NCBI GenBank assembly: GCA_050084515.1 | Contig: CM114271.1 | Location: 43,276,001-43,340,000, forward strand | Direction of reading: 5' to 3' | DNA length: 64,000 bases | Source of the DNA: Blasia pusilla | Lineage: Eukaryota | Shown: positions 9,712 through 31,862 of the stretch, piece by piece | Numbering within the stretch: the first letter of the stretch is position 1 | Layout: each line of letters begins with the position of its first letter | Position numbers and translations under genes: made by a program | Notes under the pieces: generated by a model | What the model was told of the DNA's origin: nothing | What the model saw: the letters and a program-made list of their open reading frames with translations, nothing else | Databases searched by the model: none

Positions 9712-9957
9712 TGTTAGAAAGTTATCACCGAAATGTTAGGAGTAGTGACAACAACAAGTCAAGTTCAATTCCTATTAGTGAATGTATAGTGGAAGGCATT
9801 TGCACTGTCTTTCTATATCTATATATTGAATATATTGTACATAGCATGTAACGGACCAGGAGTGATGAGCTTGACACTCACTCATTTCATATCCGAAATA
9901 TGTCTCTCTTGCTTCTCACCTTGTCTCTATGATTTTTGAATCCTTGTTTTTACAACA
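9712..9957 (+). repeat. Copia 5' LTR
   Basis: tgttagaaag...ttttacaaca; homologous to 30336-30604. Confidence 0.92.
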
Positions 9958-9969
9958 TGGTATCAGAGC
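9958..9969 (+). promoter_or_regulatory. Primer binding site (tRNA-iMet)
   Basis: tggtatcagagc immediately after the LTR. Confidence 0.95.
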
Positions 9970-11946: not shown

Positions 11947-13916
11947 CTTTTGTGTACCTCTTAAATCACAAATAAAAAACGTTCACAAAATTCCAATTGT
12001 ACAAAATTTTTACTGAGAAACAAACATAAAGTAAAGTAAAGATCTTAAGATCAGACAATGGTGGAGAGTTAAAATCCACATACTTTAAGTTATTTTGCCA
12101 AGAACGTGGCATACATAGACAATTTACTATACCTCACACTCCACAACACAATGGAGTAGCTGGAAGGAAGAATCGTAGTTTACTAACTATTGTAAGAGCT
12201 ATGCTACAAGGATCATGTCTTGCTAAGACTTATTCGGGAGAAGCGTTGCTCATTGCCAACTATTTACAAAATAGATTTCCTAATAAGGCACTTGAAGATG
12301 ACTTAACCCCATATGAGGTAAGGCATGGACATTCACCTAATCTCTCTCATCTTCAAGTGTTTGGTTGTACAGTGTATGAATAGATTCCTACTCACTTGAG
12401 GAAGAAGATCAACTCCAAGTCTATAGAGTGTATCTTCCTGGGTTATAATGAATCAATGAAAGGATACATATTGGAGAATAAATCAGATAGATCTATAATT
12501 GTATCCCGAGATGTTAAGTTCCAAGCTAGAGAGAGTCCAAAACCAGAAAATTTTCAGATGCAAGAACCAAAAGAATGTCAAGAGACACTTGATCTAGCTG
12601 GATTGATAGTTTTTCTAGTCATGGGTGGCTATGAACTAGTGGGATCTCCCACAAAAACCCCTATTATAACCACACCAAAGAAAGTAGTAGTATTGCCTTC
12701 ACAACTCAGTACTCTTACTAATGTCCCTTGCCAAGTTTCTTCTAATCCTTCTCTACAAACTCTTGATACTTTCCAATTACTATACCGACCAAGAGTCACA
12801 CCAAGTAAAATTAAGAATATTGTGAATGACCTTTGAGAGTCAGTGAGCCCAATTCATAAATCATGTGAAGTACACGCTCTTATAAGAAGTGAAGGGATTC
12901 AAAAGAAGCCGCAGAAGTTTGACCCTAGTCCTTAAGAGAAGCAGTCACGAATGGAGAAGAAAATAGAAGGCAAAGATAGTTTGGCTCATGCTCTTATGAG
13001 TCAAATGAATGAGCAAACCAGAATTGAAGAAAAAAAACCATTGATGAGGCTTTCAATAGCCCACAATGCATCCATTTGCAAAGAGCGATTGAAGAGGAAA
13101 TGGAGTCTATGAAAAACAAAATTGGATTGTCACAACACTTCCAAATGAAAGGGAGCATGTAAGATGCAAGTGGATATTCAAGCTTAAGTAGATTATTAAT
13201 GGGAGCATTGAAAGGTATAGGGGGAGATAAGTGGCAAAAGAGTGTTCTCGCATTTATGGAATTGATTATGCTGAAACATTCTCGCCTATGGTTAAGACTA
13301 TATTGATTCGGGTAATGCTTGCTTTAGCTGCACAATTTGATCTTGAGATACATCAATCGAATATGAAAATGGCATTCTTGAATGGTGAACTTGAAGAGGA
13401 ATTATACATGGAGATGCCTAAAGGGGTAAGTGACTCTTACCAACTTGATCAAGTGTGCAAGCTAAACAAAGCCATTTTTTACTTGAAGTAGTCGTCAAGA
13501 TTGTGATACAAAAGGATGACTCTTTCTTGCTAAGGATTAATTTCAAGAAAATTGTTTCTGATTCAAATTTTTACATTCTTAAACTTCAGAAAGACTATTT
13601 ATGCTTGGCCTTATATGAAAATGATACAATCTTGCTTGGAAACTCTACTAAGCTATTGAACTCTGTGAGGGAATCATTAAAGCAAGAATTCAAGAAGACA
13701 GACCTTGGAGAGATCCATAACTTCCTACACATCGAGGTTACGCAGAATAGAGAGGAAAGATGGATTAAACTTTCCCAAGAAAGATAAATTCTTAGAATTC
13801 TAGAAAGATTTAATAGGTCTGATAGTAAACCACTTTTGAATCCTATCAAATCAGGCCAAAGGTTGATTGAAAAGGACTCTCCAAAAACTCTAATTGAAGG
13901 ATATTCCTTATAAAAG

Positions 13917-14017: not shown

Positions 14018-14112
14018 TTCCTTATAAAAGGGCAGCAAAAATTTTAATGTAGGCTATGGTTTGTACCATGCCTTATATATCTTTTGCTTTTAGTGTTGTA
14101 TCCCGCTACATG

Positions 14113-14881
14113 TGTCGTGCGCATACACATCGCTACACAATATACATTGATGTCAATGAACATACACACAAACACGCACGATCCCATGCTAACCCATGGC
14201 ATCCAAACAACGAGACGAGAAGTACCAAAATATCTCCAATAAATCAATGAAATCTCACATCAACATCTCACTCCAAACTCTCAATGGTATGCACTCTCTC
14301 TCATGTCAAACCAAACCCTGTCTCCTAATGAGAGGCTTGGGTTACACACACAAGACAAGGAAGACCATAGCTCCGCCACTTCATGCCAAGAGGTTCAACA
14401 AAGAGAATATGAGCTCTCAAGCTCTCTCTCTCTCTTAGAGGTATATCCCCTTCCCTCTCCCAAGCTCTCTCCTCAGTAACGAATGCTCATAGGACACCTC
14501 CTTGGCTCTTGACCTGTTGTAGCGGGTCAAGGTCCACTTTCCAAAGTGGAAATTCAACTATACTCCAAATAGAAACTGACCCAAAATAGTAAGTTTCTCT
14601 ATACGGCTCCAAATCAGCCGAAACGAAGGGGAAACCTGCTCTCTCAAGTTATCTGTGGCCTTAGCACGTCATTCTCGACCTCCAGAGGTTATCATCCAGT
14701 ATCTTTGAAGGCGCTCTACTAGATCTCGCTGATCTATCCTAAAAGTCGTGATTGTTGTCGTGCGCATACACATCGCTACACAACATACATCGTTATCAAT
14801 GAACATACACACAAACACGCACGATCCCATGCTAACCCATGGCATCCAAACAACGAGATGAGAATTAACAAAATATCAACA
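14113..14881 (-). repeat. 3' terminal repeat block of the gypsy element: Y'(14756-14881) - X(14239-14751) - Y(14113-14238)
   Basis: A ~126-bp unit tgtcgtgcgcatacac...aaaatatc occurs twice, flanking a ~510-bp unit homologous to 29209-29760. Confidence 0.92.
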
Positions 14882-15062
14882 ATTTCCCCCCTAGTTGGTG
14901 GTTAGGTCCCTCTCACTCCAGATAGCCATCTATCCCTACCTACTATGACATACATCTCTCGGACACTAAGAGCAAAAGGTTGGGTGCTCATGTGGCCCCA
15001 TCGTTAGTCGCCTTCTTGTCATTGATTTCATAGACACAAGTCGGAATCTATAATTACCTACT

Positions 15063-15206
15063 CTATGTACATCTAAGATACATCCATCATCTCTGAGGAC
15101 CCTTAATGAGAGGTGGCGTCAAACATGCCATATGCCATCCTCTCGAACACCCATCATAGACTAGCATAGTGGTTGCACCACGGGCAGAACCACACAACAT
15201 ACATCG
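15063..15206 (-). pseudogene. PHD finger at the C-terminus of the gypsy polyprotein
   Basis: RCMLCGSARGATTMLVYDGCSRGWHMACLTPPLIKGPQR*WMYLRC fits the C4HC3 PHD consensus, with two Cys->Tyr decay substitutions. Confidence 0.88.
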
Positions 15207-15399
15207 CAAGCCTGCATGAACTATTGCTAAACTTGGATCAACTATACCATCAAATTTTGGAAGGTGACATGGCGCACAGTTACGCACAAGGTCCTTCCAA
15301 ACCATACCATCGCATCCCTCCAATAAGAGAACACCTAATGGAAAAATCTTACCCACTCTCAAGATGGTGCGTCTTGCAGTCACATCCAACATCATGAGT

Positions 15400-16420
15400 G
15401 TTGTCTATTGCAAGTAGACATAGTCTCCTTGATGAAACCTCCAGATGGTAGGTCAATAACCACCTCCCCGAATAGTCGCATACCTCCACGTATCCTAATG
15501 TTCGCAATCGCTAAATTCTCAAACGCCATGAGCATCACTCTCTAAAACAACTCAGCCCTTTAAGAACATGCTCGCATCCATACATTAGGGTCATCAAGGT
15601 TCAACACCTCACCAACATCTCAAAAAATGGCCTCAAGAAAATTTGGTTCTCGACCATAAAGTAGCAAGTACGGTGAGAAAGACGCTAAGGATGTCTGCTT
15701 GCTGAATCTGAATCCCATCGCCAACCACGGCAATTGGAGGTCCCAGTCTCTTACGTGACCTCTCTGCAAGCCATACTTACGCAATCCTCTCTTCACCATC
15801 TGCACAACCCTCTCCCCTAGTCCATCCGCCTCAAGATGATCTCGCGAAGTGGTGCGGTGGTCGATCAGTGTGTGATCACACAAGGCCTAAAACTCCTCAC
15901 GGAACTCTGTGCCCTGGTCTGTCAACACCTCAGCTGGTGCACTGTAATGACTCAGCACTCAATCTAGGAAGGAATACGCTACTCCCTTACTCGCTTTGTC
16001 AAGAAATGCAACCAACTCTATCCACTTTGAGAACTACTCAACCATCACCAACACATAACAACTATGGCGCTCCGTCAAAGGTAAAGGTCCTACAAAATCC
16101 AAACTCCATCTATAACCTAAACCCATGATCCGAAGTGGATGCAATTATGGAGTCGGAGAATTGAAAGATGCTCGGATCCGATCACACACCATGCACTTGC
16201 CAAAAAAATTTGAAGGTCAGTCTGCATGCCTGCCACCAACATTGTATCCGGAGTAAGCTATACGTCCGCTTCACTCCAAAATGACCCAACTCCTCGTGGG
16301 CATGATGTACCAAATGTGCTCTCTATGAATGCTAAGGCACTACACGTACTCTATCATCCTCCCAAACTTGCAACACATATGTCCCCTCCCATCAGAACCA
16401 TCTCGCTCGCCGTAGGATCC
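15400..16420 (-). pseudogene. Gypsy DDE integrase
   Basis: HEELGHFG..CMVC (HHCC), WSLDFVGPLP, EVLTDQGTEF, ADGLGERVVQMVK, FSPYLLLYGREP. Confidence 0.92.
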
Positions 16421-16739
16421 AATCCTACGGGCTAACACCCACTGTGCTCACAACGTTGCCAGTATGTAGGTACTCCAAGACCACTCCATTTTCGTGAATA
16501 TCTCAGCCACGTGTCGTCTCCTCACCAACCTCTGGATCTAAGGACTCTCCATCAAACCTTGCCATCAAAGTCTCTGCAATTTGGCTCTCCATAGCCAACA
16601 AGCCCAAATAGGCTCACGCGTGCCATCCTGGAACCAACTCCTAATCCCCCTCTCCATGCCATCAAGCTCCAATCACATCTCGCTGACTCGGGCATGGGTT
16701 AGGGTTCAAACCATCTACGTCTTGGTTGAGCGTCCCTTG

Positions 16740-18940
16740 TCTGTGCACCACTTGGAAATCATACTCCTGCAACAATAGAGCCCACCTTGCAAGCTTCCCT
16801 GTAAGTTTTTTGGACTCCATCAACCACTTAAGTGGCTAATGATCGGTAATAATGGTAAAGAGGTTGCCGAATAGAAAACGCCTAAAATGTACGACAGCCC
16901 ACACTACAGCCAAGCACTCACCCTCATACAAGCTATACTTTGCCTCTACATCATTGTTCGAGCGACTAGTGTAAGCCACCATCATCTCTCTATCCTCATC
17001 GTCATGTTGGGTGAGCACGGCTCCAAGCCCCAACATACTCCAATCGGTATGCTGCCAGAAAGGATGCCCCCTGATCGGTCTCCTCAATATGAGCGTAGAC
17101 GTCAATCTATCCTGGAGCAACTGAAATGCTCTCTTCTCCTTATCCCCCCACTACCACTCTTGATCCACTTTGTTGAGCAAGGTGAGCGGCTTCGCAATCG
17201 AACTCAAACCCTTGACGTACGGTCGATAGAAGTTTTCCAATCCCATGAATGCACGAACTCGACTCACATCTGTAGAGCATGGAATGCGTGAAATAGCCTC
17301 TACCTTGTCTGCTGCACACCAAGGCCCCTTGGGTATATCGTATGACCCAGATACTCAATCTGGTCGTAGAAGAACTTGCACTTGCCTTGATGTAGCTTCA
17401 GCCCATGTAACTGCAATCTTCTAAACACCTCCTCTAGATGTCGCTCATGCTCTTCAACCTTGGCGCTAAAGACTACTATGTCATCAATATAACACTTGCA
17501 AAATCCAGACCTGCCGAGATCCTATCCATGACCCTCTGAAACTCAGCCAGGGCGTTCTTTAACCCAAATGGTAAGAACCACCACTAGTACAAGCAATCCT
17601 TCCCATGAGGATCAATGCCCAAAAGTACCGACTTCTGCTTGTCCTCCAATCTAATAGGCAGTTGATGGAATCCGGCTCAAAGATCTAGCAAGTAGAAGAT
17701 CTTTGCATGCCCAATAGCATCAAAGATCCCCTTAGGCATGGGCATGGCATACCTATCGGACTTCGTCTATTGATTGATAGGTTGGTAATCTCCATACATT
17801 CGCCTATCCATCCAGTTGCCATGCACATCCTTCTTGGCGGGCATCATAGTGGCAGAAGCATACTCTCCATGCGATATCTCCACTAGTCCTGCTCCAACCA
17901 AGTCGTGGGTCCTACTGTGAATCAAGGTTGCACGGAAACGAACATGTCCGTCCATGGGACAAGTCCGGACATGCCCGGATTGCACCCGGGCCCGCACTCA
18001 AGCCCGCCCCAAGCTCGCCATGTAGACCCGTGCTCACGGAGCTCGCACTTGTTGCATGGCCCGCACGGTGGGCTCCATGCGGGCAAGTGTGGGTTTCGAG
18101 CAGGGAGGTATGGGCTCAAGGTGGGCAAGCGCGGGCTATCGGATGATTGGGCGCGAGCTCCAAGCAGGCAGGCGCGGGCTCTAGATATGAGCGGGCTCTA
18201 GACATGTGCAGGTAGGTGCGGGCTCAAGGTAGGCACGTGCGGGCTAGGGCGGGCAGGTGTGAGCTCAAGGCTGATTGGGCGCGGGCTAGGGCGGGAAGTT
18301 GCAGGCTTAGAGCGGGCTAAGGCGGGCAATTTCGGGCTCAAAACGGGCAAGCGGGGTCTCAGAGTGGGCAGGTGCGGGCTCCGGCAAGCATGCGCAGGCT
18401 CAAAGCTGATTCGGCGTCGACTCTGGATGGTCAGGTGCGGGCTCCAATCGGGCAGACGCAGGGAGGGCGCGGGTAGGTGAGGGTTCCAAGCAGGGAGGCG
18501 CAGTTGAGGGCCTGCAGAATTTTGGTCCAAAATCTGGCGGGCCTTGAGCCCGCATGCGGGCTTAGGGCGGGCTTAGGGCGGGCTTAGGGCGGGCTTAGGC
18601 GGGCTTCAAGCACGTACCCAGGGCCTGCACCAAGCGCGCCCTAGGCCGGGCTGCAGGCCGCGCAACGGGTGAGGGATGTAGGTGGACTCGGGTGCGGGCC
18701 GTATGCCCTGGTGCCCAACCCCGCATGGACATGTCCGTCAATAGGACGAACATAAGTCTATGGACATGGATATGTCCGCGGACACGGACTTTGTCCGTGT
18801 GCAACCTTGCTCTGAATCACAACTCTCTCCATATCACTGTACCTGTAGGATCGTCGGAAGATCGGCGTGTCACTCGACAACTCAATGCAGATGCCTGGAC
18901 CCTTCAATGTACCCAAATCATGCATACATGCAATCTCCAT
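16740..18940 (-). pseudogene. Gypsy RT + RNase H (interrupted by a hAT MITE)
   Basis: YRYSDMER, GDYQPIN, DL*AGFHQL, PFGLKNA, CYIDDIVVFS (17471-17500), EYLGH; RNase H HTDWSMLGLGAVL, EGECLAVVWAV, ITDH. Confidence 0.93.
17923..18809. mobile_element. Non-autonomous hAT-type element (887 bp), same terminal family as 7615-7919, opposite orientation
   Basis: Perfect TIR caaggttgcac / gtgcaaccttg; 8-bp TSD ctgtgaat/ctctgaat; interrupts the gypsy RT; GC-rich interior built from gcgggct repeats. Confidence 0.92.
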
Positions 18941-19279
18941 CGTGAGTACGGTAGGACTCTCCGGCGCGGATGATGATGGTTGCTATGGGTGCAACCCCGT
19001 ATCGGACAATAGAACTCAACTGCTCCCCAGTAGCCAACTGCAAACTCTGATCTCCACGTGTAGTACCGCAAACCACGCTGGATGTTGTGGCTATCATCTC
19101 CCGGCATACCTGCAAAATATCCCAAGAAGTCCAAGGGTGTCTCTCCTGATCACCCCTAGTATGTCGATCTCCTCGGGTGTCACCCCCAACCATTGTCTCA
19201 ACCATCTCCGTAGGCATGGGGCTCACCAATGCAATAGCTTTGATGTGTCACAACCTCAAACGACGCTGCTCAGTTACTC

Positions 19280-19567
19280 CTAAACTGAAAATCCATGTCA
19301 AGCACTTTAGGTCCATCGCGTGACCTAAGACATGACATCGTGATGCCTCTCATAGTGATAGTATTATCGTCACTCCTGTGGGGAATCCCATCGCTCGCTC
19401 TCGCTCATCGGCATTGGGCTCCACCAACGGTTGTATTTGGTCATCCCAAACCAAGCCAGGCCCAACCTCCTTGAATGCATAAGGAGGAGGGAAACTCACC
19501 AATGTGGGAAAGGCTACTCGTGGCATGTCAATCCTGTTGACCACAGTCAACGACGGTCGATCATCGT
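19280..19567 (-). pseudogene. C-terminal half of a cytosine-5 DNA methyltransferase (motifs IX-X), DNMT3/DRM-like
   Basis: EPNADERERAMGFPTGVT..*EASRCHVLGHAMDL parallels DNMT3 'EMERVFGFP..YT..SRLARQRLLGRSW' and DRM 'EPDEVEMLLGFP..HT..LGNSF'. Confidence 0.85.
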
Positions 19568-20471
19568 GCCTCACTCTCGGGGATCTTACTTCCGCAGAAG
19601 AGACACATCACGTACGACAAAGTATAGGGTTTTTTAATTGGATTTAGGGGAAGACTTATAAAGAGTTGTGGAAGAACTTTAGGATATTTTTAATTTATGG
19701 CAGAAATTATTTTAAAAAATAGGGCATTGTTAATTCACTGGGTGTACATGAAAGATGTCCAAGAAAGTAAGGGGTGCCCACCATTTTTTTTTAAATGGTG
19801 GGCACAGGTGTCAACAATTTATTGGTCCACGTGTCAATCTTAGAGCTAGCCCAATAAATGACATGGATTTATTAATTAATTTTGAATTTTAAATGAATAT
19901 CTAATTTAGTATATCTAACCTAATCAGGAACGTTGGCGGGAGAGAGTGAAGCCAGTGTGGGAGAGGGAAGGAATCCAGCTTGAAGCTCGAGGAAAGGATC
20001 TCAGCTCGAGAAAAGGAATGCAACACAGCTCAGGGAAAGGAATGCAGCTCGTGAATGTTGAACGAATGTTGAACGAGGAATGCTAATCGTTTAGCATTCT
20101 CATTCTTGTTTTCTTAGCACCATCCAACCAAGCGCAAGGATTGTTTTGTGAAAAGAGTCACTTTATTTTTGTAGGTGACAGCATTTTGGTCTGGAAGACG
20201 GACGGACTCAAGGGAGGCTGGCTCTCGAGAGGATCAAGCTGCCGATGCGGATGTAGTAATTATCTTCTTTTTCTTGTCCGGGCGGGTTCTCAAGTAATAT
20301 GCATACCTCTTAGCCTGATTGTGATCGTCTACATAGGTTTCTGGAAGATAGAATGAATAGTTGCGACGACTGCCACCGAGTTTCCATCGTATTTGCATAA
20401 AACATGCAGCTGACCCAAATATCATGGGGTTGTAGGAGGCTAGGCTGAAGATTTTCTCAAGGAATAGCTTG

Positions 20472-20788
20472 CATTCAAAAACCCAATAAATTGCAGCAAA
20501 TGCCCAACAGTGATACGTTGTCGCTTGTCACTCATATATGCCGTTTGAGATACACCGACTTGTAGGAGACCATACAAGCACAAAGTTTGGTTCAACGTTC
20601 TCTAGTACTGGTATGACCTCCTGAAACCAACATTCAAAAACCAATAAATTGGAGCAAGTGCCCAACATTGATATGTTGTCGCTTGTCACTCATATATTCC
20701 GTTTGAGATACACCGACTTGAAGGAGACCATACAAGCACAAAGTTTGGTTCAACGTTCCCTAGTACTCGTATGACCTCCTGAAACCAG
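20472..20788. repeat. Tandem duplication, 2 x ~159 bp
   Basis: cattcaaaaaccaataaattg...gacctcctgaaacca occurs twice with few substitutions. Confidence 0.9.
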
Positions 20789-21448
20789 CTTGTGCTCATG
20801 GCTTGCACTCATTTGATCAACCCAGTTATCGACTTTCCTCTATAACAGTATACTTCAAAGTTTGTACGTGAGGGAACTCACCATGATAGTTAATTATTGT
20901 GAGGTCAGCAGCGGATCACCACCCATAGGACATGAAGTGATGTAGAGACTAGGATGTGCGTTGAGAGAAGAAGAACAGAAAGAGGCACTATATCAGAGCA
21001 CGGAGACACTCTCATAGAATGTCAGTGTTGTCTTTGTTTTGCCTAATGGTGATCTATATGGCTTTGGAGACCATGATGCACCTCACAATGGGACGAAAGA
21101 AATTAATCCATTGGATAGATGCTCAACTACTTGTGTCCTTGGAGATCAACATGCATCTTTGTCATATGTCACAAATGTTTATAACCACTACAAAATTCAT
21201 GAACATGGCTTGAAGTGGGATAATGTGAATAGAATTGACGAGGAAGACTTGAGTTGGGCCTCAACGAACTGCTTCAAAGAGAGTGCAAGCCTGTTTGTAT
21301 GATATGTTTGAGAGAATGGATGTTCGTCATGCCAGAAGCCTAGGGACCCAACTGTACTTGGAGGTTTTTGGTGATTACATTGATATTTTCTTCTCACGTA
21401 AGCATGACTTGAGAAGTCGTGTAGTTTTGGCATCTAAAGTGTCATGGT

Positions 21449-22141
21449 TGTCGTGCGCATACATATCGCTACACAACATACATCGCTGGTCACATCTACA
21501 CCACACAACACCGATCTTCCCCACACACGGGTCGATCCACACATGTACAAAAATCAACTCATACATATACATGGAGATCACACAACACAAATAAAGAGTA
21601 GTAAAAACAACACACCCGGCCTAAAACTCCACTCCTCAATCTACATCGACATATCGAGCCTCGTCCACCCTGTGCTATCAAGGAATCCGGACGCTAGCAC
21701 CCTAGTCCTATCTCACACACATACTAGGGAGGTGCTCCAACCGCCCAACATGAGAAAGATGGCTTAGGAAAGCCATCTTCCTCTCTTATATAGGGTTGGG
21801 AAGAGCCAAAAGGCTCTTCCCCTAAAAATAGCCCTCTCCTTGGTAACCTGCTCGCACAGGTTACCAGGGGCGGGTGACCTTGTCAACAAGTCACCCGGCT
21901 GTGAAAGACCTCAACATGAAAGTTGTCAGAAACGACGTTCCTGCCATAATGGACCTATCCTCAACCTCATCCAACACCGTGGGACAAATTTACACTCAAG
22001 ATAGTCCGCTGGCTCCTACGCCCTATCCACGATAGATCTCGGCCTATCGGCTACTCAGATGTGACATGGTTCTTTCGACTCTGGAGACTTTGGTTGAGAT
22101 ATGGTGATCATTCTGTAACAAGGAGTGTAGGATCTGTGACA
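21449..22141 (-). mobile_element. Solo LTR of a family related to the gypsy element
   Basis: tgtcgtgcgcatac...tgtgaca; shares the terminal ~37 bp with repeat Y. No TSD visible, and part of the host transposase appears deleted. Confidence 0.75.
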
Positions 22142-24055
22142 TAGAAGAACATGATATCAGTGCAAGCTTTCCATGATATCAACATGTCTTGCCATTTTCT
22201 TGTATTACTAATGTGTGTTATCCGTGACAAGTATCAATAATTGCAAGTTCCATTTCATCTCCTAGGATGTGATTGTTGTGAGATCTTCTTCAGCAAGGTA
22301 GATAATGAGTGGCCATGAACGCAACTATGATTTTGGGTCTTTGTTGGATAATGCAGTGGGATTGAATAGACTGGATGGCTTGGAATTAGGACCAGAAGGA
22401 TTAAAGATTGGCGAGTCTCATCCAAAGCAAGATCATGCGTGGGGAACTCTCCATCCGTTAGATGCACGAGAAGATGCCCCTAACCTGTTTGACTTTTCAT
22501 TGATTCAGACTAATGAGCTAGAATTTGATGCCCTTAAGGAGGGTTTGGATGAAGCAAAATCAATATTGACTAGGTTGAATATGTCTTCTAGATCTTCTAT
22601 GCCAGTAGGTCAGAGGCAATGGTGGTTGCATCCATAGGATGTGGAGGCAGAGACGTGCCCTGATTCTGCTCTTATGAATGAGGTAGTTGCATTTGATGAT
22701 TTTGAGGAATTCATAGAACACATACCAACAATAGGCCCTTGTCCACCCGAGTGTTGATGAAATAGAAGTTGAAGACCCAATACCAAAGGATTTGAATAGT
22801 CTTGATGCATGGGAAAGTGATGCACCGGCCTCTTTTGATTCTAGAATGATTGGTGAGGACTTGGCTGAAGATGCAGGTAAAGATCAATCTATAGAGACGA
22901 AAACATTTGGACATGAGCTAAGGCCTGTATTCAGTTCAATTTCGCAGAAGTGCACTGATGAAGTTCCTCTTCGAGTTGTGCCTACTGTGACCTTTGAGGG
23001 CAGAGTGCACTTCAATTCTACTTTGGTGAGTGATTGGGCGTGCAATCCTTTCATTTCTAAAGATAGGCTAACACGTATGTCACAAAAAAACATATTACAC
23101 TACAGTTAAGGTAAAAGAACCAACTATTCCAGCTTTCCTAACTTGTTATGTTGATATTGGAAGTGATATAGCTGTTTTGTTTGAATCTACCACACAAGTG
23201 TGCCCTTCTATCAAATCAAGTAAGTCAAAGAAGAGAAAACAAAAAGAGCTCCGTGAGAATAGGGTAGTCCCTACAAGTGAGTTCTGGTTAGGTTGCATTC
23301 TATTCATGAAACATAAATATGGTAGTCAATGGGATAGGTGTAGATCTCCTATTGATCTTTTGGACCAGCCTGCCCTAAAAGATGGGCAGAGAGGAAGTCT
23401 CTTTCAGATATTGTGCAATTGGTATCGACGTTGAGATAAGAGCAACACTTTGTTCACATATGATGCATGTGATGGCCAATATATTGATATTGAAATGATG
23501 ATTTCGAATGTGAGTTTGTCCATGAAGCCAAGTCTTACATCCACGATATATGAATTGGATAACTATGATTTACAAGTGGTCAATGATTATATCCGCAATG
23601 TGTCATCTTTTGCCAAGTGATGTGCATGTCATAGTGTGAAGTAATTTTTTGAGATTATGATAGGCTAGTTTTGGGAGGGGATAGGTAAGGGGGATGAGGC
23701 GTCTCAACCAATGAGCATCCTGATTATTGTGAGGTTCAATTCCTCTCCGTCATAAGTGCCAAAGTACCTATATTTGACAGTGGTGGTGCATATGGTTGAT
23801 CGTGAAGGCTGTTATCAAGTGCAACAATACAAGACCGCCACGTGAAGGTATACTTATCTTTACTTTTAAGCCCCTAAACAAATCAAGGACAAAAATTTAC
23901 TTAACAAAATATAGGGGTCATAATTTTTTAATTGGAAATTTTAAAGTAAGTAAGGGGGAGGGAAAAAATTCACTTATAAGTTAGGGGTTTCCGACCTAAA
24001 AATATTGTAGGTAATGTTGGAGTTATACATAGACTGTCCCCCCCAAGGCCTCACT

Positions 24056-24710
24056 GCCTGTGATTGACAACATGGATCCAGAATAGAATCCACCAACAAA
24101 TAGGAGGGGCGCTCCACTCTCATACGCCCTCCGTTAAACCTCATGTGGCACCAACTTGGTCCATCAAAGACGCGGGCGATGTGCTCATGAACCTACATTT
24201 TCCGCATCCAAGAACAATCCCAAGCCCATCTATGCGTGCACCAGATGTGCACTCATCCCCACGCGGGACCTCAAAGCGCCCAAAATCAGCACATTCTCCA
24301 GAATGCTGGAGAACAAGACTGATGCTCGTGTAAGTGTCGCAAAATCCACATCATCTCCCAAAACAACCTCGATCAAGAGTCCGCTAATCCACTACCCCGT
24401 CTAACACTCGACTAGCCCTGACACGCCAACCAGCAATGACCAAGTCTATGGTCCCTACCCGCTCCAAGTCATGCGTCCCCAACAATGAAATATCCCTCCG
24501 TAGGGAACTCTAGTATACCTAGATGGTAGACGTAGACAACAAGTCAGGAAATCAGAGGCATAATTGCGCCACATGATGAAGTGAATCGCGCCTCGCAACA
24601 TCATCAATCTCAACATATAGGTACTACTCCACGCGCACTCTTGCCTGCAAAACAGCATCTAAGCCACTGTTGATCCCTCCAAAGAGATCCAACACGCGAA
24701 TACCCTCCAC
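24056..24710 (-). pseudogene. N-terminal half of a cytosine-5 DNA methyltransferase (motifs I-VIII), DNMT3-like
   Basis: GIRVLDLFGGI (I), YVEID (II), RDI (III), IDLVIAGW(P)CQG (IV, 1-nt deletion), RLFWEM, LENV (VI), LDAENVGS*AHRPRL*WTKL (VIII; cf. DNMT3 IDAKEVSAAHRARYFWGNL). Confidence 0.9.
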
Positions 24711-25099
24711 TGGATGCACCACACAATCAGGGTGGTGTCCAAAGGGGTCATAGCAACAGTCATGGCTACCTTGGATTCCTCTAACCAGTCACGCTCTTGT
24801 GCAAACGCCTCACTCTAGGTCGTCTGCACGTGCTCATGAGATAAACTTTGGAGCTCCTCACTCAAGCCCCACAACGGCACCTCTCCTCCACGGAATGATG
24901 CGGCTACCATAACACTCCTCTCCCTAGAAGTGTCAAGCGCGGGGATGTCCTCTGCATGGACATGCCCCTCAATCAAATCTGAAGGCCACGTGATGGCGTT
25001 GCTGAATGCTGCTAAAGTTGCCATCTCCCCTGGCCGTCGCTCGATCACTCAACTCGTGAATCAAACGGATAATGAGCTAAGTTGCCCATCACCGGACTG

Positions 25100-27508
25100 C
25101 CATCTTGGTCTGTAGAATGATGACCCCTCCCAGTAATCCAAGGAAAACCCCATCGGATACAACACTACTCCACCAACCAAGACGTCGTAGGATTCTGCAT
25201 CGGTCACTATCGCCTTGGCTCGCACCACGGACTAATCTGTAGGATGTCTTAGGCGAATCCTTATCACAACCTCTTGTTGGGTGATAAACTGTGTGGTACT
25301 CGCTCCACCCAAGGATGTCTATATCTAGAATGAACAATGTTCCACATCGGCCCTTGTCAGGCCTAACCCTATAAATGCCACTTTCCCCAACATCAAGGGT
25401 TGCGCTCTTGAATCTAACAAGACATGCTGCAAACAAAAAAATCTAACTCTAAGACTCACCATCTGGAAGATCTCTCCCCAATTTTCCAGCAATACAACAC
25501 CAGGAGAAACCATGGCACGCTCTATCGCGGGTCTAACGAGCATCTCCGCCATCCTAGCACTCGCAACCTGCCATGAATCTAAGTTGGACGGCCCGAGCAT
25601 CAGCTCCAAGGGCATGTCCATCACCTCCTCTACAATCACCTCTGAACGTGATGCAAAAACACCATCTCCATGCTCATATAGCGTAGCGATCAACTAGAAA
25701 ATCTCGACGGGCGTCCCAACGTCAGAACATCGGAAGCAAAAAATAGCGCACCACGATATACCATCGTAGCCGCCCCCAACATCATACTCGACACATGCTT
25801 CTCCCGAGCATCAACAATAGAAGTCATCACACTCGCTTCTCCCATTTCCCTCCGTGCTTGCACACTAACACCATCAACTCTCCGAGAACTTTGATCAAGA
25901 CCCATTCATGGGGTCCTCATCGCCTCGGCCTACGTGAAAGATTGAGGAAGCTTGGTCTGTTTCCTGGCTTCCCCCTCTGTGGATCCAACTCCGCGGCGGC
26001 TCCACGTGTAACAACAACGGCTGCCTCCAATTGGACAGTTGCGGAGTTAGTCACTCCAGCCAGAATCCTCCATATCTCCGGCGGCTCCATAAGACGTCAA
26101 TGCCACGACTCCCGCATCGTGTAACCTCAATGCCCTAGCGGCAATGTACTCCTGTAGCTACTCTATCTAAGCAGCCATTCTAGTCTCACGTGCGGCCTCT
26201 CTCTCGACGCGTCTAAGTGGCGGAACTCTACCTCCTCCACAAGAAACTCCACCACCCCCTCGGGAAAATCCAACTCCTCATCCCCCAACAGAACCACCTG
26301 GTGCACGACCTCTAAGCCCACCCGGACCGGCAACTCGCTCGAGTGCCCTCTCGGGCCCTAGGTCTGGACGTAACTCAAGGTATAGGCTGAAACACGTGGG
26401 GCATGTATGACTGTACCTTTGACAATAGTCACGCTAATAACCTCTTGGTGCAACACCATCTCCTCCTCCATGTTGAGGCACGCGTCCATGAGCCTGAGGA
26501 GTGAAATTGAACTGGTCATGGGCTCCACCACATGCCCAACAAATAATCGCAGGCGGCTGCTGTTGAGCCGCATATGAAGGCGCAGGTCTTGTGGCACGGC
26601 CTCACGATCTCCTCCCTAAGCTCGTGGTGCCACAGACCTATCTCCGAATCCACGTTGTTACACTCGTGGTGCAGGAAATTGTGACTGCTCTTGCCTAGAA
26701 CCCATGGTGGATACGCTCTCTTCTGCCATGTTACGCTCAATGTTCTCCGTGGTCCTAAAAACATCTCTCAACATAGGTGAGGTGTTCATAAGAAGCACCA
26801 TCTCCCGCACCGGTGTCCGCAAGGTTTGGTCCAACATCGCATATCATGATTGGATAGCGTGGGACTTTATCACCCCCTTAGTGACATTAATCAACCGGCG
26901 CAAGCAAGTGTAAGCCTCACGCAAACTCTCACCCGGGAACCTCTGGATGTCGTGGATGCTCCGCAACTTCTCAGTCCGTACCTCCTGATAGCTTGTCCAC
27001 AACTCCGCAAAGAACTCAACCACGGGGTTGAACCTGGGACAAACCCCAATGGACAGTGCAATTGCTCCAGTGCAAGTTACCCCTCCTAAAACTTCACTGG
27101 TGAAAGAGGAAGTAGCCTCTCTTGAATCCTCCTCCTGATCAGGAACGGCTCAGTCCATGACACATAATGTGGATCATAGTAGAGTCTTCATGCCTCAATC
27201 TCCTAGGCATATCTGTGGGAGAACTCATGGTAATCGTCCATGGGTGCCCCCTCTAAATGCTGGAATATTCTGCTCCACGTTGTAAACGAGTAGAATTCTC
27301 TAGAGTTCCTAGCCCACTGTGAGTCACACCAACTCCTAAACTCTATAATAAATTCATGCAACTCTATCGTGCCTATAGCACCCGAAAACCTACGTGGTCC
27401 TCTATCACGGTCGTCCATCTCATACGCCCAACTCGTAGGACCACTCAATGTATGCGGTGATGCACTAACAAACTCCTCTACACTCTCCCCCTTCTCTAAA
27501 GACGACAC
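25100..27508 (-). pseudogene. Gypsy Gag and aspartic protease
   Basis: Gag-like PRRFSG..LHEFIIEFRSWC..HLEGAPMDDY; Cys/His knuckle-like ICWACGGAH (~26540); protease VLLDSRAQPL (D-S-G variant, ~25410). Confidence 0.75.
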
Positions 27509-29208
27509 AAAAGGAGGTTGAGGCGATCCCTCATGTAGAGAACCTCAAAACCTCGCGCCACTCCGCATGAACCCTCTAGAGCTACCCTCAGGTCCACCAC
27601 CTCGCCTCTCAAAGTCTCAAAAGGACAACATGATGACCCTCGTGTCCCTCTCACACGATCACTCTCAATCTCACGAGTAATCACTCAAACTTAACATGCG
27701 GCACTCAATCTACAGTCTCTCACTGAGATGTGTGTTGTGCGACAACAAGCGGCGTGGTGCGGCAAACTGGCTGATATATCGTCTCATGAACAGCACGTAC
27801 CCTCAACTCTGGACATCCCATATAGATCTATGTCCCCTAAACCCATACAGCATCGATGCTCTCAGCATCAGCACGAAACCCAATATCCCCAAATAACTAT
27901 CCAATACTCGGAAATCCCTAACACATGCAAGGACAAAGACCAGAATAGGTAACATGAACAAATGTCGATCGCTCGTCAGCAACTGGAAACCTCGACCCGA
28001 AATCAAACATAAAGACAAACTCCTCCAAGCAGAAGTCGTACTCCTCTGGTATTGACTATGCTCCAAAATCTCCTCGATGTGCAGTGCGGGTCAAACGATA
28101 CGGTGCGGCACTGGCGGCACGGAACGGCTACATACGGCACGTCACTCGGGAATGTGGTGCGGCACTCAACCGCATACCCTCCTCAGTCAACAAAACACAA
28201 TCTGCTCCCAAGTGATGGAGTGGCTCCGTGATCGAGACGGTACGGTGCGGCCATGAGCGACACATGGCGGCAATTGGCAATGCGTTCCGGCTACGGGCGT
28301 CACGGCACGGTACACGATCGTCGTCGAGCGGCTACCAATCACAACATAGCAAAGTGGAAAAGAAACTACGATCCCATGAATCCAAAAAAGTCACCTTGTC
28401 AAAGTCGCGAGTAAACAAGTGGCGATAACCCATACGGACTCACCAAGTATGAGATGGGCGGCCCTAGCTAGCCCTCAACGATGTTGGCGGCAAGACGTAG
28501 TTCTGAACAGCGGCGGCAGCAACTTGTGTCGGCGGAGGCAACGATAACTAACTGCAGCGACTACGAGGACGGCGGTAAGCGGCGGAGGCAAAAACTCGCA
28601 TTGGTGGCGGCGGCGGTGCAAATGGCACAGAAGGCGCGAATGGTGACGGTGATGGCAACGGTGGCAGCTGGTTTAGGGTTTGACAATTTTTACCCTAAAA
28701 TTGGCAGTTTGCAAAATTGGTCATAACTTTCTGCTCGCAACTCCAAATTGTGCATTGATTGTTGTACAGCGTGCACAGCTTCATGATCTACGATGGCATT
28801 AATATTTTTTTGATCAAAACTTCCAATAAAAATTGACGAGAACTATCATAAAGCCCTTCAATCTACTATCCTACAAGAAATTCAGCAGCGCTTCCGCGCT
28901 GATTTCTCCCAGCATAAATTTCAAACCTATAAAAATCAGAAATCAAAGAAGTTCAAGGTGCTCTTGAGAGTACTGGCATGGGGCAATCTGCCCCCATACT
29001 CAATCTCTAAAGAAACTTGGGCAGCGCTTCCGCGCGCCACTCTTCCACACAAAAAATCGGTAAAGAAACATCAAAATCAAGCGGCTCTTGCTCCAGTGAG
29101 CACTCCCATGAGCCGTTGAATGGCGAACATGGTTCCCAACATGCACCAACAGTGAGTGACTAGTGAGATCCTCTATTGAAACTCTCTCACTCCTTCATTC
29201 TCTCTATG

Positions 29209-29760
29209 TAAATCAATGAAATCTCACATCAACATCTCACACCAAGCTCTCTATGGTGTGCACTCTCGCTCATGTCAAACCAAACCCACTCTCCTAATAA
29301 GAGGCTAAGGTTACACACACAAGGCAAGGAAGACCATAGCTCCGCCGCCTCATGTCAAGATGTTCAACAAAGAGAGAATGAGCTCTCAAGCTCTCTCTCT
29401 TGGAGGTATACCCCCTTCCCTATCCCAAGTTCTCTCCTCGATAACCAATGCTCGTAGGTAGCCTCCTTGGCTCTTGACCTGGAGGTCAAGAGCCTCTATT
29501 GAACCTCCTTGGCTCTTGAACTGTTGTAGCGGGTCAAGGGCCACTTCCCAAAGTGGAGAATCAACCATACTTCAAATGGAAACTTACCCGAAATAGTAAG
29601 TTTCTTTATATGGATGCAAATGAGCCGAAACGAAGGGAAAACTTGCTCTCTCAAGTTACCCCTGGCTTCATCAAGTCATCCTTGAACTCGTGAGGTTGTC
29701 CTCTAATATCTCCAAATACGCTCTACTAGATCTCGCCGGTCTATCCTAAAAGTTGTGACA
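29209..29760 (-). repeat. 5' terminal repeat X of the gypsy element
   Basis: Homologous to 14239-14751, with an extra ~42-bp internal duplication at ~29480-29520. Not followed by unit Y or a clear PBS. Confidence 0.92.
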
Positions 29761-30335
29761 TATGGCTAATTCCGGACAGAAGCAATAGAATGTAATCAAT
29801 AGAATTGTATGATACTTTAAAGGTATAGTATCCATTGGCATAAATTATCATACGACAGAAGATTGATTGGTTACTTTGACACTAATTGGGGAGGCAACCT
29901 TGATGGCAAAAGATCAACTTCTCGATTTTTTTTCTTGTCGGATCAAAGAGCTATTTTTTGGCCAAGTAAGAAGCAAAATTCAGTTGCCTTATCAACTACA
30001 GAATCATAGTACATGGCTTAAGCAAAAGCAAGCACCAAAGCAGTTTGGTTGAGGAATTTTCTTGCTGATTTGGGACATCAACAAGATCATATTACTATGT
30101 ATTGTGACAATAAGGGTGCAATTGCATTGCTAGAGAATCGTAGATCAAGTGATAGAACAAAACATATTGACATTCGGTATCATTTTGTTAGAGAGTTGAT
30201 ACATAATGAAGTCATCGAAGTGATCTATTGTGACACTGATGACATGGTGGCAAGATATTCTTACCAAAGGATTGACTTAAGATAAGCATATTTATCACAA
30301 TAATAAACTTATTGGTTGTAGTCACTAAGTGGGAG

Positions 30336-30604
30336 TGTTAAAAAGTTACCACGAAAATGTTAGGAGTAGTGACAACATCAAAAGTCAAGTTCAGTTCCTG
30401 ATAGTGAATGTATATGTAGGATCAAACAGATAGGATTGGAAGGCATTTGCAATGTCTTTCCACATTTGTATATTGAATAGATTGTACAACGCATATAGCG
30501 GACGAGGAGTGACTCGTTTGACACTCACTCATTTCATATTTGAAATTTGTCACTCTCGCTTATCACCTTGTCTTTGTGATCTGTGAATCCTTGTTTTTCC
30601 AACA
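30336..30604 (+). repeat. Copia 3' LTR (PPT aagtgggag at 30327-30335)
   Basis: tgttaaaaag...ttttccaaca; homologous to the 5' LTR. Confidence 0.92.
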
Positions 30605-30866
30605 TAAGCTTTGCATGGATAGTCTTTGTTCCACTACGAAAGATGTGATAAGTTCTAAAGGGTCATGGATAGGATATAACCAAGTTTGGATTTGGTAGAT
30701 GTTATGCCTTTTATATCATAATCTTCAGTTTCATAATTAAGGAGCATGAACAATATCTTATAGATGTGTTTGATCAAATGTACTAATATGAACTGAAGTT
30801 ACATCCATATAAGTACAAGCTCTTCCACAATCAAATTCGATATCTAGATTACATAATATATCTTTT

Positions 30867-30951
30867 AGGCTTACGAGTTTTTTTTTTAAATGGAGGGTGC
30901 TAGACGAAATTCGTGGAATAGCCTCCATTTTTTTTTAAAACTCGTAAGCCT
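30867..30951. repeat. Short foldback (inverted repeat)
   Basis: aggcttacgagtttt..aaatggagg / cctccattt..aaaactcgtaagcct. Confidence 0.85.
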
Positions 30952-30952
30952 T

Positions 30953-31140
30953 TTCATAATCACTTAAAAACCCTTGATCTATCATTTATAGAAGCGTGTG
31001 GATTATATGAGTGCATGAAATTGACTCAAATGTTTGCTGGGCGAAATATCGTGGAATAAACATTTGAGTCAATTTCATGCACTCATATAATCCACACGCT
31101 TCTATAAATGCAAGATCAAGGGTTTTTAAGTGATTATGAA
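30953..31140. repeat. Near-perfect long hairpin, 83-bp arms and 22-nt loop
   Basis: 30953-31035 is the reverse complement of 31058-31140 with 2 mismatches. Confidence 0.95.
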
Positions 31141-31862
31141 GCCTCTTACTATGATGTTGAAGATGGATCATGAATGGTGAGGAGGGAGCGCTTTTGAGCA
31201 ATTCACGGAAAGATTTACATCCACACCCATCTTAACTCTTAAAGACCAATCAAGAAACACCATTTCCAATTGTAGAACAATTCGAATATGGAGTTTTCCT
31301 CCCATAAGATGATGATGAAGGTAGAAATTTTGTAGTGGCTTAAGCCACCCTCTCAAACAATGTTACCTAGATGAACAAGAGAGAGTGCTTAGTCACAATG
31401 TGGGTCATCACATATTTTAAATGTTGTTTGTTCACTAACCCCTTAACTAGTGTCATTGATCATCAATTGTCAAAGAGGTTGATGGATTTTTGGCAATCCT
31501 ATAATCTGTAACAAAATGACCCATATGGATTTTGTGGATCACATGACGGAATGTCAAATGAATTCTATGTGACGGCCCCTGAACTGAACTTGAACTTGAG
31601 CATTCTAGTGTGCATGTTTGAAGATTGAAGGTCCCCAACTACTTTAAGGGTCATGAATTCTTGTATTAATAAGTCTTGTGCTTGGAAATTTTGCAACACA
31701 ATTTCACCGATGCCAAAGAATATGTACAAATTGGAATAGAGATGATCAGAACAAGCTTCCAATCAAGAGGAGCAATATGTTCAACCCTGCCAGCGTAGAT
31801 TGGCAGAATGCCCAAGGAAATGTGAGGTCTTGTAAAGATCCCCAAGATGACCTCCACTTGTG

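Follow-up and report, generated by a model that had tools for sequence, protein, structure and literature searches.

The stretch examined here, referred to below as the window, comprises 64,000 nucleotides of the Blasia pusilla contig CM114271.1 (assembly GCA_050084515.1, positions 43,276,001 to 43,340,000). On its minus strand, between 14113 and 29760, lies an old and dead copy of a Ty3/gypsy long terminal repeat (LTR) retrotransposon, whose family has the domain order gag, protease, DNMT3-like DNA methyltransferase (DNMT), an in-frame UAG, reverse transcriptase (RT), RNase H, integrase and PHD finger. In the family to which it belongs, the C-terminus of the integrase carries the PHD finger as a fixed module under selection. 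An earlier note on the window had seen here a chromatin reader and a DNA methylation writer joined in one polyprotein of a transposable element (TE), the reader possibly guiding the writer.

PHD finger of the window copy and of its relatives

The Pfam families RVT_1, RT_RNaseH, Integrase_H2C2, rve and PHD were found in this order on the minus strand, and the order protease, RT, RNase H and integrase, the direct LTRs and a target-site duplication identify the element as Ty3/gypsy. Decay is extensive, with dozens of stops and several frameshifts in this copy. Positions 15063 to 15206 correspond exactly to a PHD-like stretch with its terminal stop, which translates on the minus strand as R-CMLCG...RCT-stop and ends 180 nt upstream of LTR-derived sequence. 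A 105-residue open reading frame (ORF; 15404-15090, minus strand) covers the integrase C-terminal region and the first six ligand positions of the finger, ending in ...AGLRCMLCGSARGATTMLVYDGCSRGWHMACLTPPLIKGPQR; it is followed by a TGA (15089-15087), the residues WMYLRCT and the TAG at 15065-15063. Six of the eight zinc ligands are present, ligand 3 (15158-15156) and ligand 7 (15080-15078) being Tyr, the in-frame TGA is premature and a conserved Pro is replaced by Leu. At the two Tyr ligands, the premature stop and the Leu, the intact relatives differ from the window by one transition each, of the C-to-T or G-to-A type.

Against the profile PF00628, the read-through frame reached 21.3 bits (E 2.8e-4) and the 105-residue ORF 23.6 bits (E 5.4e-5), in each case just short of the 24 bits that Pfam sets as gathering cut-off. 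The window copy has neither the eight C4HC3 ligands nor the score that characterise the PHD family of Pfam; the same profile scored 33.7-50.4 bits on relatives. The earlier note had described a C4HC3 PHD finger behind the integrase: the kind of domain, its place and the order of rve core, integrase C-terminus and PHD were borne out, but the finger itself is not intact. Judged by its sequence, the finger in the window is a decayed remnant, while the element family is a PHD-bearing one.

With the 105-residue ORF as query, 27 longer proteins were found with E values down to 1.2e-40 and 58-77% identity, 23 of them with a PF00628 match. They originate from Marchantia polymorpha, Calypogeia fissa, Sphagnum fallax and metagenome contigs, and several (P0011, P0022, P0023) contain rve, Integrase_H2C2, RNase H and RVT_1 in one protein together with the PHD. 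The finger of the relatives has the spacing C-x2-C-x10-C-x2-C-x4-H-x2-C-x13-C-x2-C, and the proteins end 2-13 residues past it. Eight Marchantia polymorpha gene models (P0001, P0008, P0010, P0018, P0020, P0202, P0203, P0218), annotated as hypothetical 'PHD-type domain', 'CCHC-type domain' or 'DNA (cytosine-5)-methyltransferase' proteins, are fragments of this retrotransposon family and not host genes.

We then compared 81 sequences, namely the window and 80 related loci fetched from metagenome contigs. The integrase C-terminus was matched in 76 of the 81; the full finger was covered in 44 sequences, and in 43 of these a single in-frame match runs from the integrase into the PHD. All eight ligands without a stop are present in 38 of the 44, the exceptions being the window and five loci (L009, L053, L063, L067, L068). 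Two intact loci, L030 and L037, each contain an ORF of 1047 residues with RVT_1, RNase H, Integrase_H2C2, rve and PHD (E values for the PHD 2.6e-10 and 4.3e-10). The finger thus stands, as the earlier note had stated, in the slot that chromodomains occupy in chromoviruses, and an out-of-frame PHD in intact copies, the observation named there as speaking against this, does not occur. Between L030 and L037 the ratio of non-synonymous to synonymous rates (Ka/Ks) is 0.044 over the 47 codons of the PHD (20.5 synonymous and 8.5 non-synonymous differences), close to that of RT-RNase H (0.039), integrase (0.032) and the whole ORF2 (0.059).

Public DNA and RNA reads labelled with the species of the window were mapped to 14900-19700 at a likeness of at least 80%. 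The DNA run was sampled at about one read in 100 and gave a depth of 1100-1800 per orientation over the element, and of 1-5 over an insert of about 900 bp within the RT; by this comparison the family is repeated several hundred-fold, fragments included. This insert is private to the window copy, as both DNA and RNA reads skip from 17889/17914 to 18810/18825 and leave a depth of about 0 in between. In three RNA-seq runs the depth was about 70-250 with the first mate on the plus strand versus 0.4-20 with the first mate on the minus strand, which in most stranded libraries indicates RNA of the minus strand, the sense strand of the element. Over the bin with the PHD (15061-15221) the corresponding values were 166, 200 and 174 versus 19, 20 and 19. 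Nearly all RNA reads are less than 90% alike to the window (3547 of 4253, 3778 of 4616 and 3580 of 4323), and reads at least 99% alike number 0, 0 and 3, so the transcripts come from other copies. A loose end at 15226 in 81, 77 and 73 RNA reads, reading ...MIRASLRCML in the frame of the element, is the integrase-PHD junction of these expressed relatives. Differences between window and DNA reads were biased towards A>G (175) and T>C (173), 348 in total versus 152 for G>A (82) and C>T (70), which fits a drift of the window copy by changes of the C-to-T type.

If only the window copy were considered, the PHD-like stretch could be taken for a chance match of a Cys-rich sequence or for a host exon captured by this copy, as its two profile scores stay under the cut-off and two ligands are missing. 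The homologues of the 105-residue ORF, reaching E values of 1e-40, carry intact fingers, nearly every locus that covers the finger has it in frame with the integrase, it lies inside the pair of LTRs, and transcripts of relatives extend over it. We therefore rejected chance match and single-copy capture, to which we attach next to no probability. In this gypsy family the finger is a constituent of the integrase C-terminus and is kept by selection.

The methyltransferase and a predicted leaky stop

The DNMT of the window copy is split into an N-terminal and a C-terminal part, in which motifs I, IV, VI (ENV), VIII, IX and X can be recognised (Table 1), and a C5-DNMT domain in the same element, as claimed in the earlier note, is hereby supported. 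The N-terminal part is decayed, with one frameshift and 7 stops. Searched against 1.84 billion representatives, the N-terminal piece gave 241 matches at E<=1e-3; 65 were found for the C-terminal piece, including Marchantia models of 1150-1330 residues, Calypogeia and Sphagnum. Among these Marchantia models are Mp_4g09160, Mp_6g11220 and Mp_8g17980. A middle piece (24026-24400) gave no match at E<=1e-3 among longer proteins in a word-indexed search, which we ascribe to a lack of sensitivity, since the pieces on both sides of it were matched. For Mp_8g17980 (P0218) the 25 matches to sequences of solved structures were all to DNMT3A, DNMT3B or DNMT3C (best E 2.3e-6). PF00145 was found in the Marchantia relatives and in ORF1 of L030 (E 1.8e-13), which encodes protease and DNA_methylase with motifs I (FxGxG), IV (PCQ), VI (ENV) and VIII (RxR) all readable. 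Between L030 and L037 the Ka/Ks of the DNMT is 0.14. From these motifs and matches, the DNMT of the family is a DNMT3-type C5-methyltransferase placed inside the gypsy coding region, with its catalytic motifs kept in the intact copy.

In L030, ORF1 (gag, protease and DNMT) has 1369 residues and ORF2 (RT, RNase H, integrase and PHD) 1047 residues in the same frame, and a single TAG is the sole break between them, at 5083-5085 in L030 and at 4661-4663 in L037. The contexts of these stops are GAT TAG CAG TTA and GAC TAG CAA TCA. We searched all loci and the window with the N-terminal motif of the RT and obtained 15 places. The nearest upstream in-frame stop is a TAG followed by CAR YYN in 10 of the 15, at a distance of 68-76 codons from the RT motif in 9 places and of 40 codons in the window; the remaining 5 places have a closer, evidently secondary stop. 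Of these 10 stops, 6 continue after CAR with YYA and 4 with YYC. The sequence UAG_CAR_YYA is the readthrough signal of the tobamovirus type (Firth and Brierley 2012, PMC3542737), and the conserved UAG CAR YYN is accordingly predicted to act as a type I leaky stop between DNMT and RT. Because this UAG separates them, DNMT and PHD would share a polyprotein only after readthrough, and most of the DNMT would be made together with Gag and protease and without integrase-PHD. The proposal of one TE polyprotein thus holds insofar as both domains belong to one element, but they are joined only by way of the predicted readthrough. In some Marchantia models (P0203, P0211) and in P0250 the DNMT continues into the RT without a stop.

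A protein of Closterium has the same order of protease, DNMT and RT as the window (P0182: zinc knuckle, protease, DNMT, RVT_1). A second architecture, RT, RNase H, DNMT, integrase, PHD, was found in more distant DNMT-matching proteins, among them P0074, P0127, P0133, P0139, P0159, P0248 and P0141, the last being 'pol' of Scenedesmus sp. PABB004. Added modules occur in two distant DNMT-bearing gypsy relatives from metagenomes: P0093 has a G-patch before the integrase, and in P0118 the integrase PHD is immediately followed by a PTM/DIR17-like Tudor domain. Among the DNMT-matching gypsy-type polyproteins scanned that have 250 or more residues beyond rve, 9 of 9 contain a PHD; three others (P0098, P0155, P0174) end too early and were left out of this count. 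Three copia-type polyproteins also match the DNMT piece of the window, P0157 and P0253 from Closterium sp. NIES-53/54 and P0112, with rve or SH3_retrovirus and RVT_2 as further domains (PF00145 in P0157: E 5.8e-6); DNMTs have therefore been captured by Ty1/copia elements of this charophyte as well.

The constant company of DNMT and PHD in two different domain orders suggests a functional link, and it could be taken to mean that the PHD guides the DNMT3-like enzyme much as the ADD domain does in animal DNMT3, within an unprocessed readthrough polyprotein or a complex, with 5-methylcytosine laid down where the PHD binds. ADD domains read unmodified H3, the state recognised by the fingers that the family PHD resembles, and the nearest relatives of the DNMT among solved structures, by sequence, are the DNMT3A, 3B and 3C catalytic domains. 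Set against such a coupling are the roughly 1,300 residues and the conserved leaky UAG that lie between the two domains, leaving most of the DNMT without a PHD, the protease encoded upstream in the same ORF, and the second architecture, in which the DNMT is located between RNase H and integrase and again does not adjoin the PHD. The DNMT is probably not guided by the PHD, and this part of the earlier proposal found no support; we consider the coupling quite improbable.

Anatomy of the element and its surroundings

The coordinates of all features are collected in Table 1. ORF2 residues 886-1034 of L030 match the window from 15518 to 15069, and from 15404 downward the integrase C-terminal part and the PHD share the same open frame.

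Table 1. Features of the gypsy element and of its insertion sites in the window
Feature	Position	Strand	Remarks
Interrupted Ty1/copia pol	11982-13880 and 29863-30144	plus	
Target-site duplication	14109-14112 (left) and 29761-29764 (right)		CATG and TATG; 3 of 4 bases match
3' LTR	14113-14751	minus	ends of TG..CA type; ~80% identical to 5' LTR
Terminal stop (TAG) of pol ORF	15063-15065	minus	two codons past last PHD Cys
Decayed PHD finger, C1 to C8	15069-15203	minus	C1 at 15203-15201, last Cys at 15071-15069; from alignment to intact relatives
Integrase C-terminal (SH3-like) part	15258-15518	minus	in frame with PHD from 15404 downward
Integrase	15494-16283	minus	H2C2 zinc-binding part ~16283, rve core ~16030-15900; frameshifts and stops
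RT and RNase H	16233-17922	minus	YIDD at 17491-17480
GC-rich minisatellite-like insertion, ~900 bp	17915-18810		private to window copy; parts RT N-terminus from RT core
In-frame TAG between DNMT and RT	18983-18985	minus	context CCA TAG CAA CCA; homologous to ORF1/ORF2 stop of intact relatives
DNMT C-terminal part	19263-19607	minus	target-recognition region; motif IX ERERAMGFP 19406, motif X 19331
Nested foreign insertion, ~4.4 kb	19610-24020		splits DNMT; L030 ORF1 residue 1128 at 24137, residue 1157 at 19574
DNMT N-terminal part	24137-24734	minus	motif I LDLFGG 24692, IV DLVIAGW 24446, VI ENV 24307 (after frameshift), VIII 24211
Protease and pre-DNMT region of ORF1	24827-25558	minus	L030 ORF1 residues 665-909
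5' LTR	29209-29760	minus	~80% identical to 3' LTR; last ~128 nt unrecognisable
Solo LTR of gypsy family	55843-56466	plus	perfect AGGA duplication at 55839-55842 and 56467-56470

A scan of 22000-30000 in the three minus-strand frames gave no Pfam family at E<=0.01, and it was only through motifs and relatives that a DNMT and a protease could be recognised in this copy. Gag was not identified in the window, where tblastn with ORF1 of L030 matched from residue 665 onwards only. The private GC-rich insertion is an array of degenerate units of 10-21 nt (GCGGGCT-like). ORFs of at least 85 residues in the insertion that splits the DNMT gave no Pfam match, and the read depth falls above ~19575, at the edge of this insertion. 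It holds a 158-bp tandem duplication (20472-20787) and a 50-nt fragment (21436-21485) that matches a junction at 14742-14792. At this junction, a 128-nt copy of the terminal part of the LTR (14756-14883), with 93% identity to 14113-14240, is separated by 4 nt from the 3' LTR on its inner side, and the stretch 14752-14883 thereby gives an LTR-end/LTR-start junction that recurs at 21436-21485.

The full element interrupts the pol of a Ty1/copia element on the plus strand, with rve at 12030-12380, SH3_retrovirus at 12384-12833 and RVT_2 at 13231-13784. The copia-type protein P0157 spans the insertion, with residues 833-941 matching at 13512-13880 and residues 1018-1112 at 29863-30144. A direct repeat (9790-9958 and 30437-30605, 85% identical) may represent the LTRs of the interrupted copia element, and beyond the copia remnant, at 30676-31487 on the plus strand, a fragment of another gypsy family was found (RT and RNase H, ~40% identical to ORF2 of L030). 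The second insertion of the family, a solo LTR, adjoins a PIF/Harbinger DDE_Tnp_4 frame (55388-55873, minus strand) that it cuts, the match to the profile beginning at the edge of the LTR with position 76 of 158. Both family insertions hence lie inside other TEs, as the earlier note had observed. Most Pfam matches across the window are TE domains, and nesting is therefore to be expected of any insertion here.

Proposed chromatin reading and integration targeting, and known systems

By sequence, the solved PHD fingers closest to the intact finger of the family are those of KMT2C/D, CHD4 (PHD1/2), PHF12, DPF2/3 (PHD2), PHF21A, KDM5A/B (PHD1), ATXR5, KAT6A/B, UHRF1 and AIRE, with E values from 3.5e-16 to 1e-8. 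We further compared an AlphaFold model of the C-terminus of L030 (predicted local distance difference test score 71-84 in the finger, mean 49.8, residues 1-106 mostly below 50) with 48,161 solved chains. The best matches were solved PHDs, confirming the PHD fold on the model of this intact relative. The ranking comprises the PHD of ATXR5 bound to H3 (Z 8.2, root mean square deviation 1.4, 52 aligned residues, 40% identity), DPF2 (Z 8.2), KDM5D (Z 7.5), the BAH-PHD of Arabidopsis ORC1b with an unmodified H3 peptide (Z 7.5, 40% identity), CHD4 PHD2 (Z 6.6), UHRF1 (Z 6.5-6.7), BPTF with H3K4me3 (Z 5.5), ARID5 (Z 5.1), TAF3 (Z 5.0) and ING-type fingers (Z 4.3-4.5). ATXR5, ORC1b, UHRF1 and CHD4 share 37-40% identity with the model (Z 6.5-8.2), the H3K4me3-type readers BPTF, ARID5, TAF3 and ING 17-28%, so that in sequence and in fold ranking the family finger is closer to the solved readers of unmodified H3 than to those of H3K4me3. 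In readers of the BPTF/ING type, the second residue ahead of the His ligand is a Trp of the cage; the gypsy family has a Gly at this position. Together with the ranking this favours a reader of H3 unmethylated at K4 (H3K4me0), and the PHD of the family is probably a reader of the unmodified H3 tail, as predicted from alignments and the model.

Alternatively, the PHD could be a zinc module of the integrase that serves structure or protein interaction (multimerisation, nuclear import, contact with a host factor or with DNA) and does not read histones. Some of its nearest solved relatives function mainly in protein-protein contacts, such as PHF12 in SIN3B and KMT2D PHD2/3 with ASXL2, and purifying selection on the finger is silent on what is bound. 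The intact finger keeps, however, the PP-x3-P-x-G-x-W-x-C motif, part of the ...PP...P.G.W.C..C tail common to the solved relatives, and in the alignments the residue that precedes its His ligand is aromatic, as in CHD4, KMT2C and PHF12. Moreover, the two complexes ranking highest among the structural matches hold H3 peptides (5vab, 5hh7), and the Tudor domain behind the PHD of P0118 fits a slot for chromatin reading. We regard a zinc module of this kind, without histone reading, as unlikely.

Our preferred reading, which we hold to be probable with some reserve, is that of a dead gypsy element of the order gag, protease, DNMT3-like, leaky UAG, RT, RNase H, integrase, PHD, in whose family the PHD tethers the integrase to chromatin unmethylated at H3K4 and the DNMT acts separately. 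After processing by the protease the PHD would stay fused to the integrase and bind the N-terminal tail of H3, most likely with unmethylated K4. By analogy with the chromodomains of chromoviruses, it could thereby anchor the intasome on nucleosomes that lie outside active promoters, so that new copies would be directed to silent chromatin rich in TEs. The DNMT would be made from the upstream ORF at an abundance similar to that of Gag and probably acts on its own, for example by methylating the cDNA or the copies of the element, as has been proposed for KnitGypsy-Dnmt3 (PMC5890265).

Several points weigh against this reading. The top matches KMT2C/D and PHF12 are not classical H3K4me0 readers, and the marks read by the solved PHDs were assigned in part by the titles of the structure entries and in part as general background. 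Some H3K4me0 readers have acidic residues just before the first Cys, and the residues at this place in the family (e.g. A-G-L-R) are not acidic. Z values of 7-8 are only middling on the scale of the comparison, and the reader class is predicted from likeness to solved PHDs. Retention of the PHD on the integrase after cleavage by the protease is presumed. Ks between L030 and L037 is saturated (1.0-1.8), so the Ka/Ks values given above are rough, with a clear direction. Finally, two nested insertions in a TE-dense window say little about targeting to heterochromatin.

A wider interpretation, which we find appealing and nevertheless doubtful, would see here an ancient gypsy lineage that extends across green plants, with Scenedesmus and Closterium at one end and liverworts and mosses at the other, equipped with an 'epigenetic kit': a catalytically competent DNMT3-type writer at Gag-like levels, an integrase PHD that reads H3K4me0, and a tobamovirus-like leaky UAG that balances the two. 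Such an element might pick silent chromatin and methylate its own new copies. If so, it would be concealed as heterochromatin on arrival, and in hosts with high copy numbers like the species of the window, de novo methylation encoded by TEs would be added to the methylome of the host. Close relatives sit in Marchantia, Calypogeia and Sphagnum as hypothetical genes, which raises the questions whether TE-borne DNMTs shape plant methylomes and whether bryophyte genes annotated as 'DNMT' or 'PHD-type domain' are TE fragments. The family also offers a system, in a genetically tractable liverwort, for testing how a TE that lacks a chromodomain chooses the chromatin into which it integrates.

Both components have precedents. 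Gypsy-DNMT3 elements are known from the charophyte Klebsormidium nitens (KnitGypsy-Dnmt3; de Mendoza et al. 2018, PMC5890265), appear as 'streptophytes (Gypsy-DNMT3)' in the wording of a 2026 preprint (bioRxiv 10.64898/2026.05.21.726589) and are referred to in a 2025 paper in Molecular Biology and Evolution. Like KnitGypsy-Dnmt3, the family of the window is Ty3/gypsy and carries an intron-less DNMT3-type domain with kept catalytic motifs in its coding region. The DNMT is under purifying selection in both, Ka/Ks being below 0.2 for KnitGypsy-Dnmt3 (PMC5890265), to be compared with the value for L030 and L037 given above. In contrast, KnitGypsy-Dnmt3 has DIRS-like repeats (PMC5890265), whereas the window element has ordinary direct LTRs and a 4-bp duplication, and the text and three supplements of PMC5890265 mention no PHD, which a figure could show. 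The host there is a charophyte and here a land plant, with Marchantia, Calypogeia and Sphagnum as sources of the nearest named relatives; among the 30 relatives looked up by name there was no Klebsormidium, and Calypogeia, Closterium and Scenedesmus were found, the others being metagenome proteins.

PHD fingers have likewise been described in TEs, namely in CR1 elements, REM1 (Perez-Alegre 2005), Gypsy-7a_cRei (PMC9940879) and Chlamys Penelope-like elements (PMC8557442), where the PHD is called a 'common accessory domain' of Chlamydomonas TEs. PHD fingers in TEs of green algae, where the earlier note had placed PHD-bearing gypsy lineages, are in print. Its mention of a PHD-bearing Selgy found no support, the text of Neumann 2019 (PMC6317226) containing 0 occurrences of 'PHD'. 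As in REM1, Gypsy-7a_cRei and Chlamys, the PHD of our family is an accessory domain of a retrotransposon. It is, however, the last domain, after the integrase, while the figure legend of PMC9940879 places that of Gypsy-7a_cRei between RNase H and integrase; and unlike in our family, a DNMT is listed neither in this legend nor in the passages on the PHD of REM1 and Chlamys. In the literature text searched we did not find the combination of the two, that is, a DNMT3-bearing gypsy with an integrase-fused PHD, nor a report of such an element from land plants or of a leaky stop in it, any of which figures and supplements could hold.

The likeness to chromoviruses lies in a chromatin-reader module on the C-terminus of the integrase, which presumably steers integration (Gao et al. 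2008, cited in PMC6673714). In chromoviruses this module is a chromodomain and the likely mark H3K9me; in our family it is a PHD and the mark, as far as sequence and model suggest, the unmodified H3 tail. The intact ORF2s of L030 and L037 gave no Chromo match at E<=1e-3, their C-terminus ending 13 residues past the PHD. With tobamoviruses (PMC3542737) the family shares the motif of the leaky stop, as CAR YYA in 6 and CAR YYC in 4 of the 10 conserved sites; unlike there, it stands between the DNMT and the RT of an LTR retrotransposon, where its readthrough is predicted. LTR elements that combine a DNA-methyltransferase writer with a chromatin reader were named EpiLTRs in 2026 (bioRxiv 10.64898/2026.05.21.726589), and our family is of the same general kind. 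EpiLTRs carry DAM, a DNMT4-related DNMT and a chromodomain and occur in Cymbomonas and Euglena; by contrast, the family described here has a DNMT3-like enzyme and a PHD, no DAM, and occurs in streptophytes and Scenedesmus. Gypsy-DNMT3, known from the charophyte Klebsormidium, is thus abundant and transcribed in a land plant, in an element that pairs a selected PHD on its integrase with a predicted leaky stop that would set the ratio of writer to integrase.

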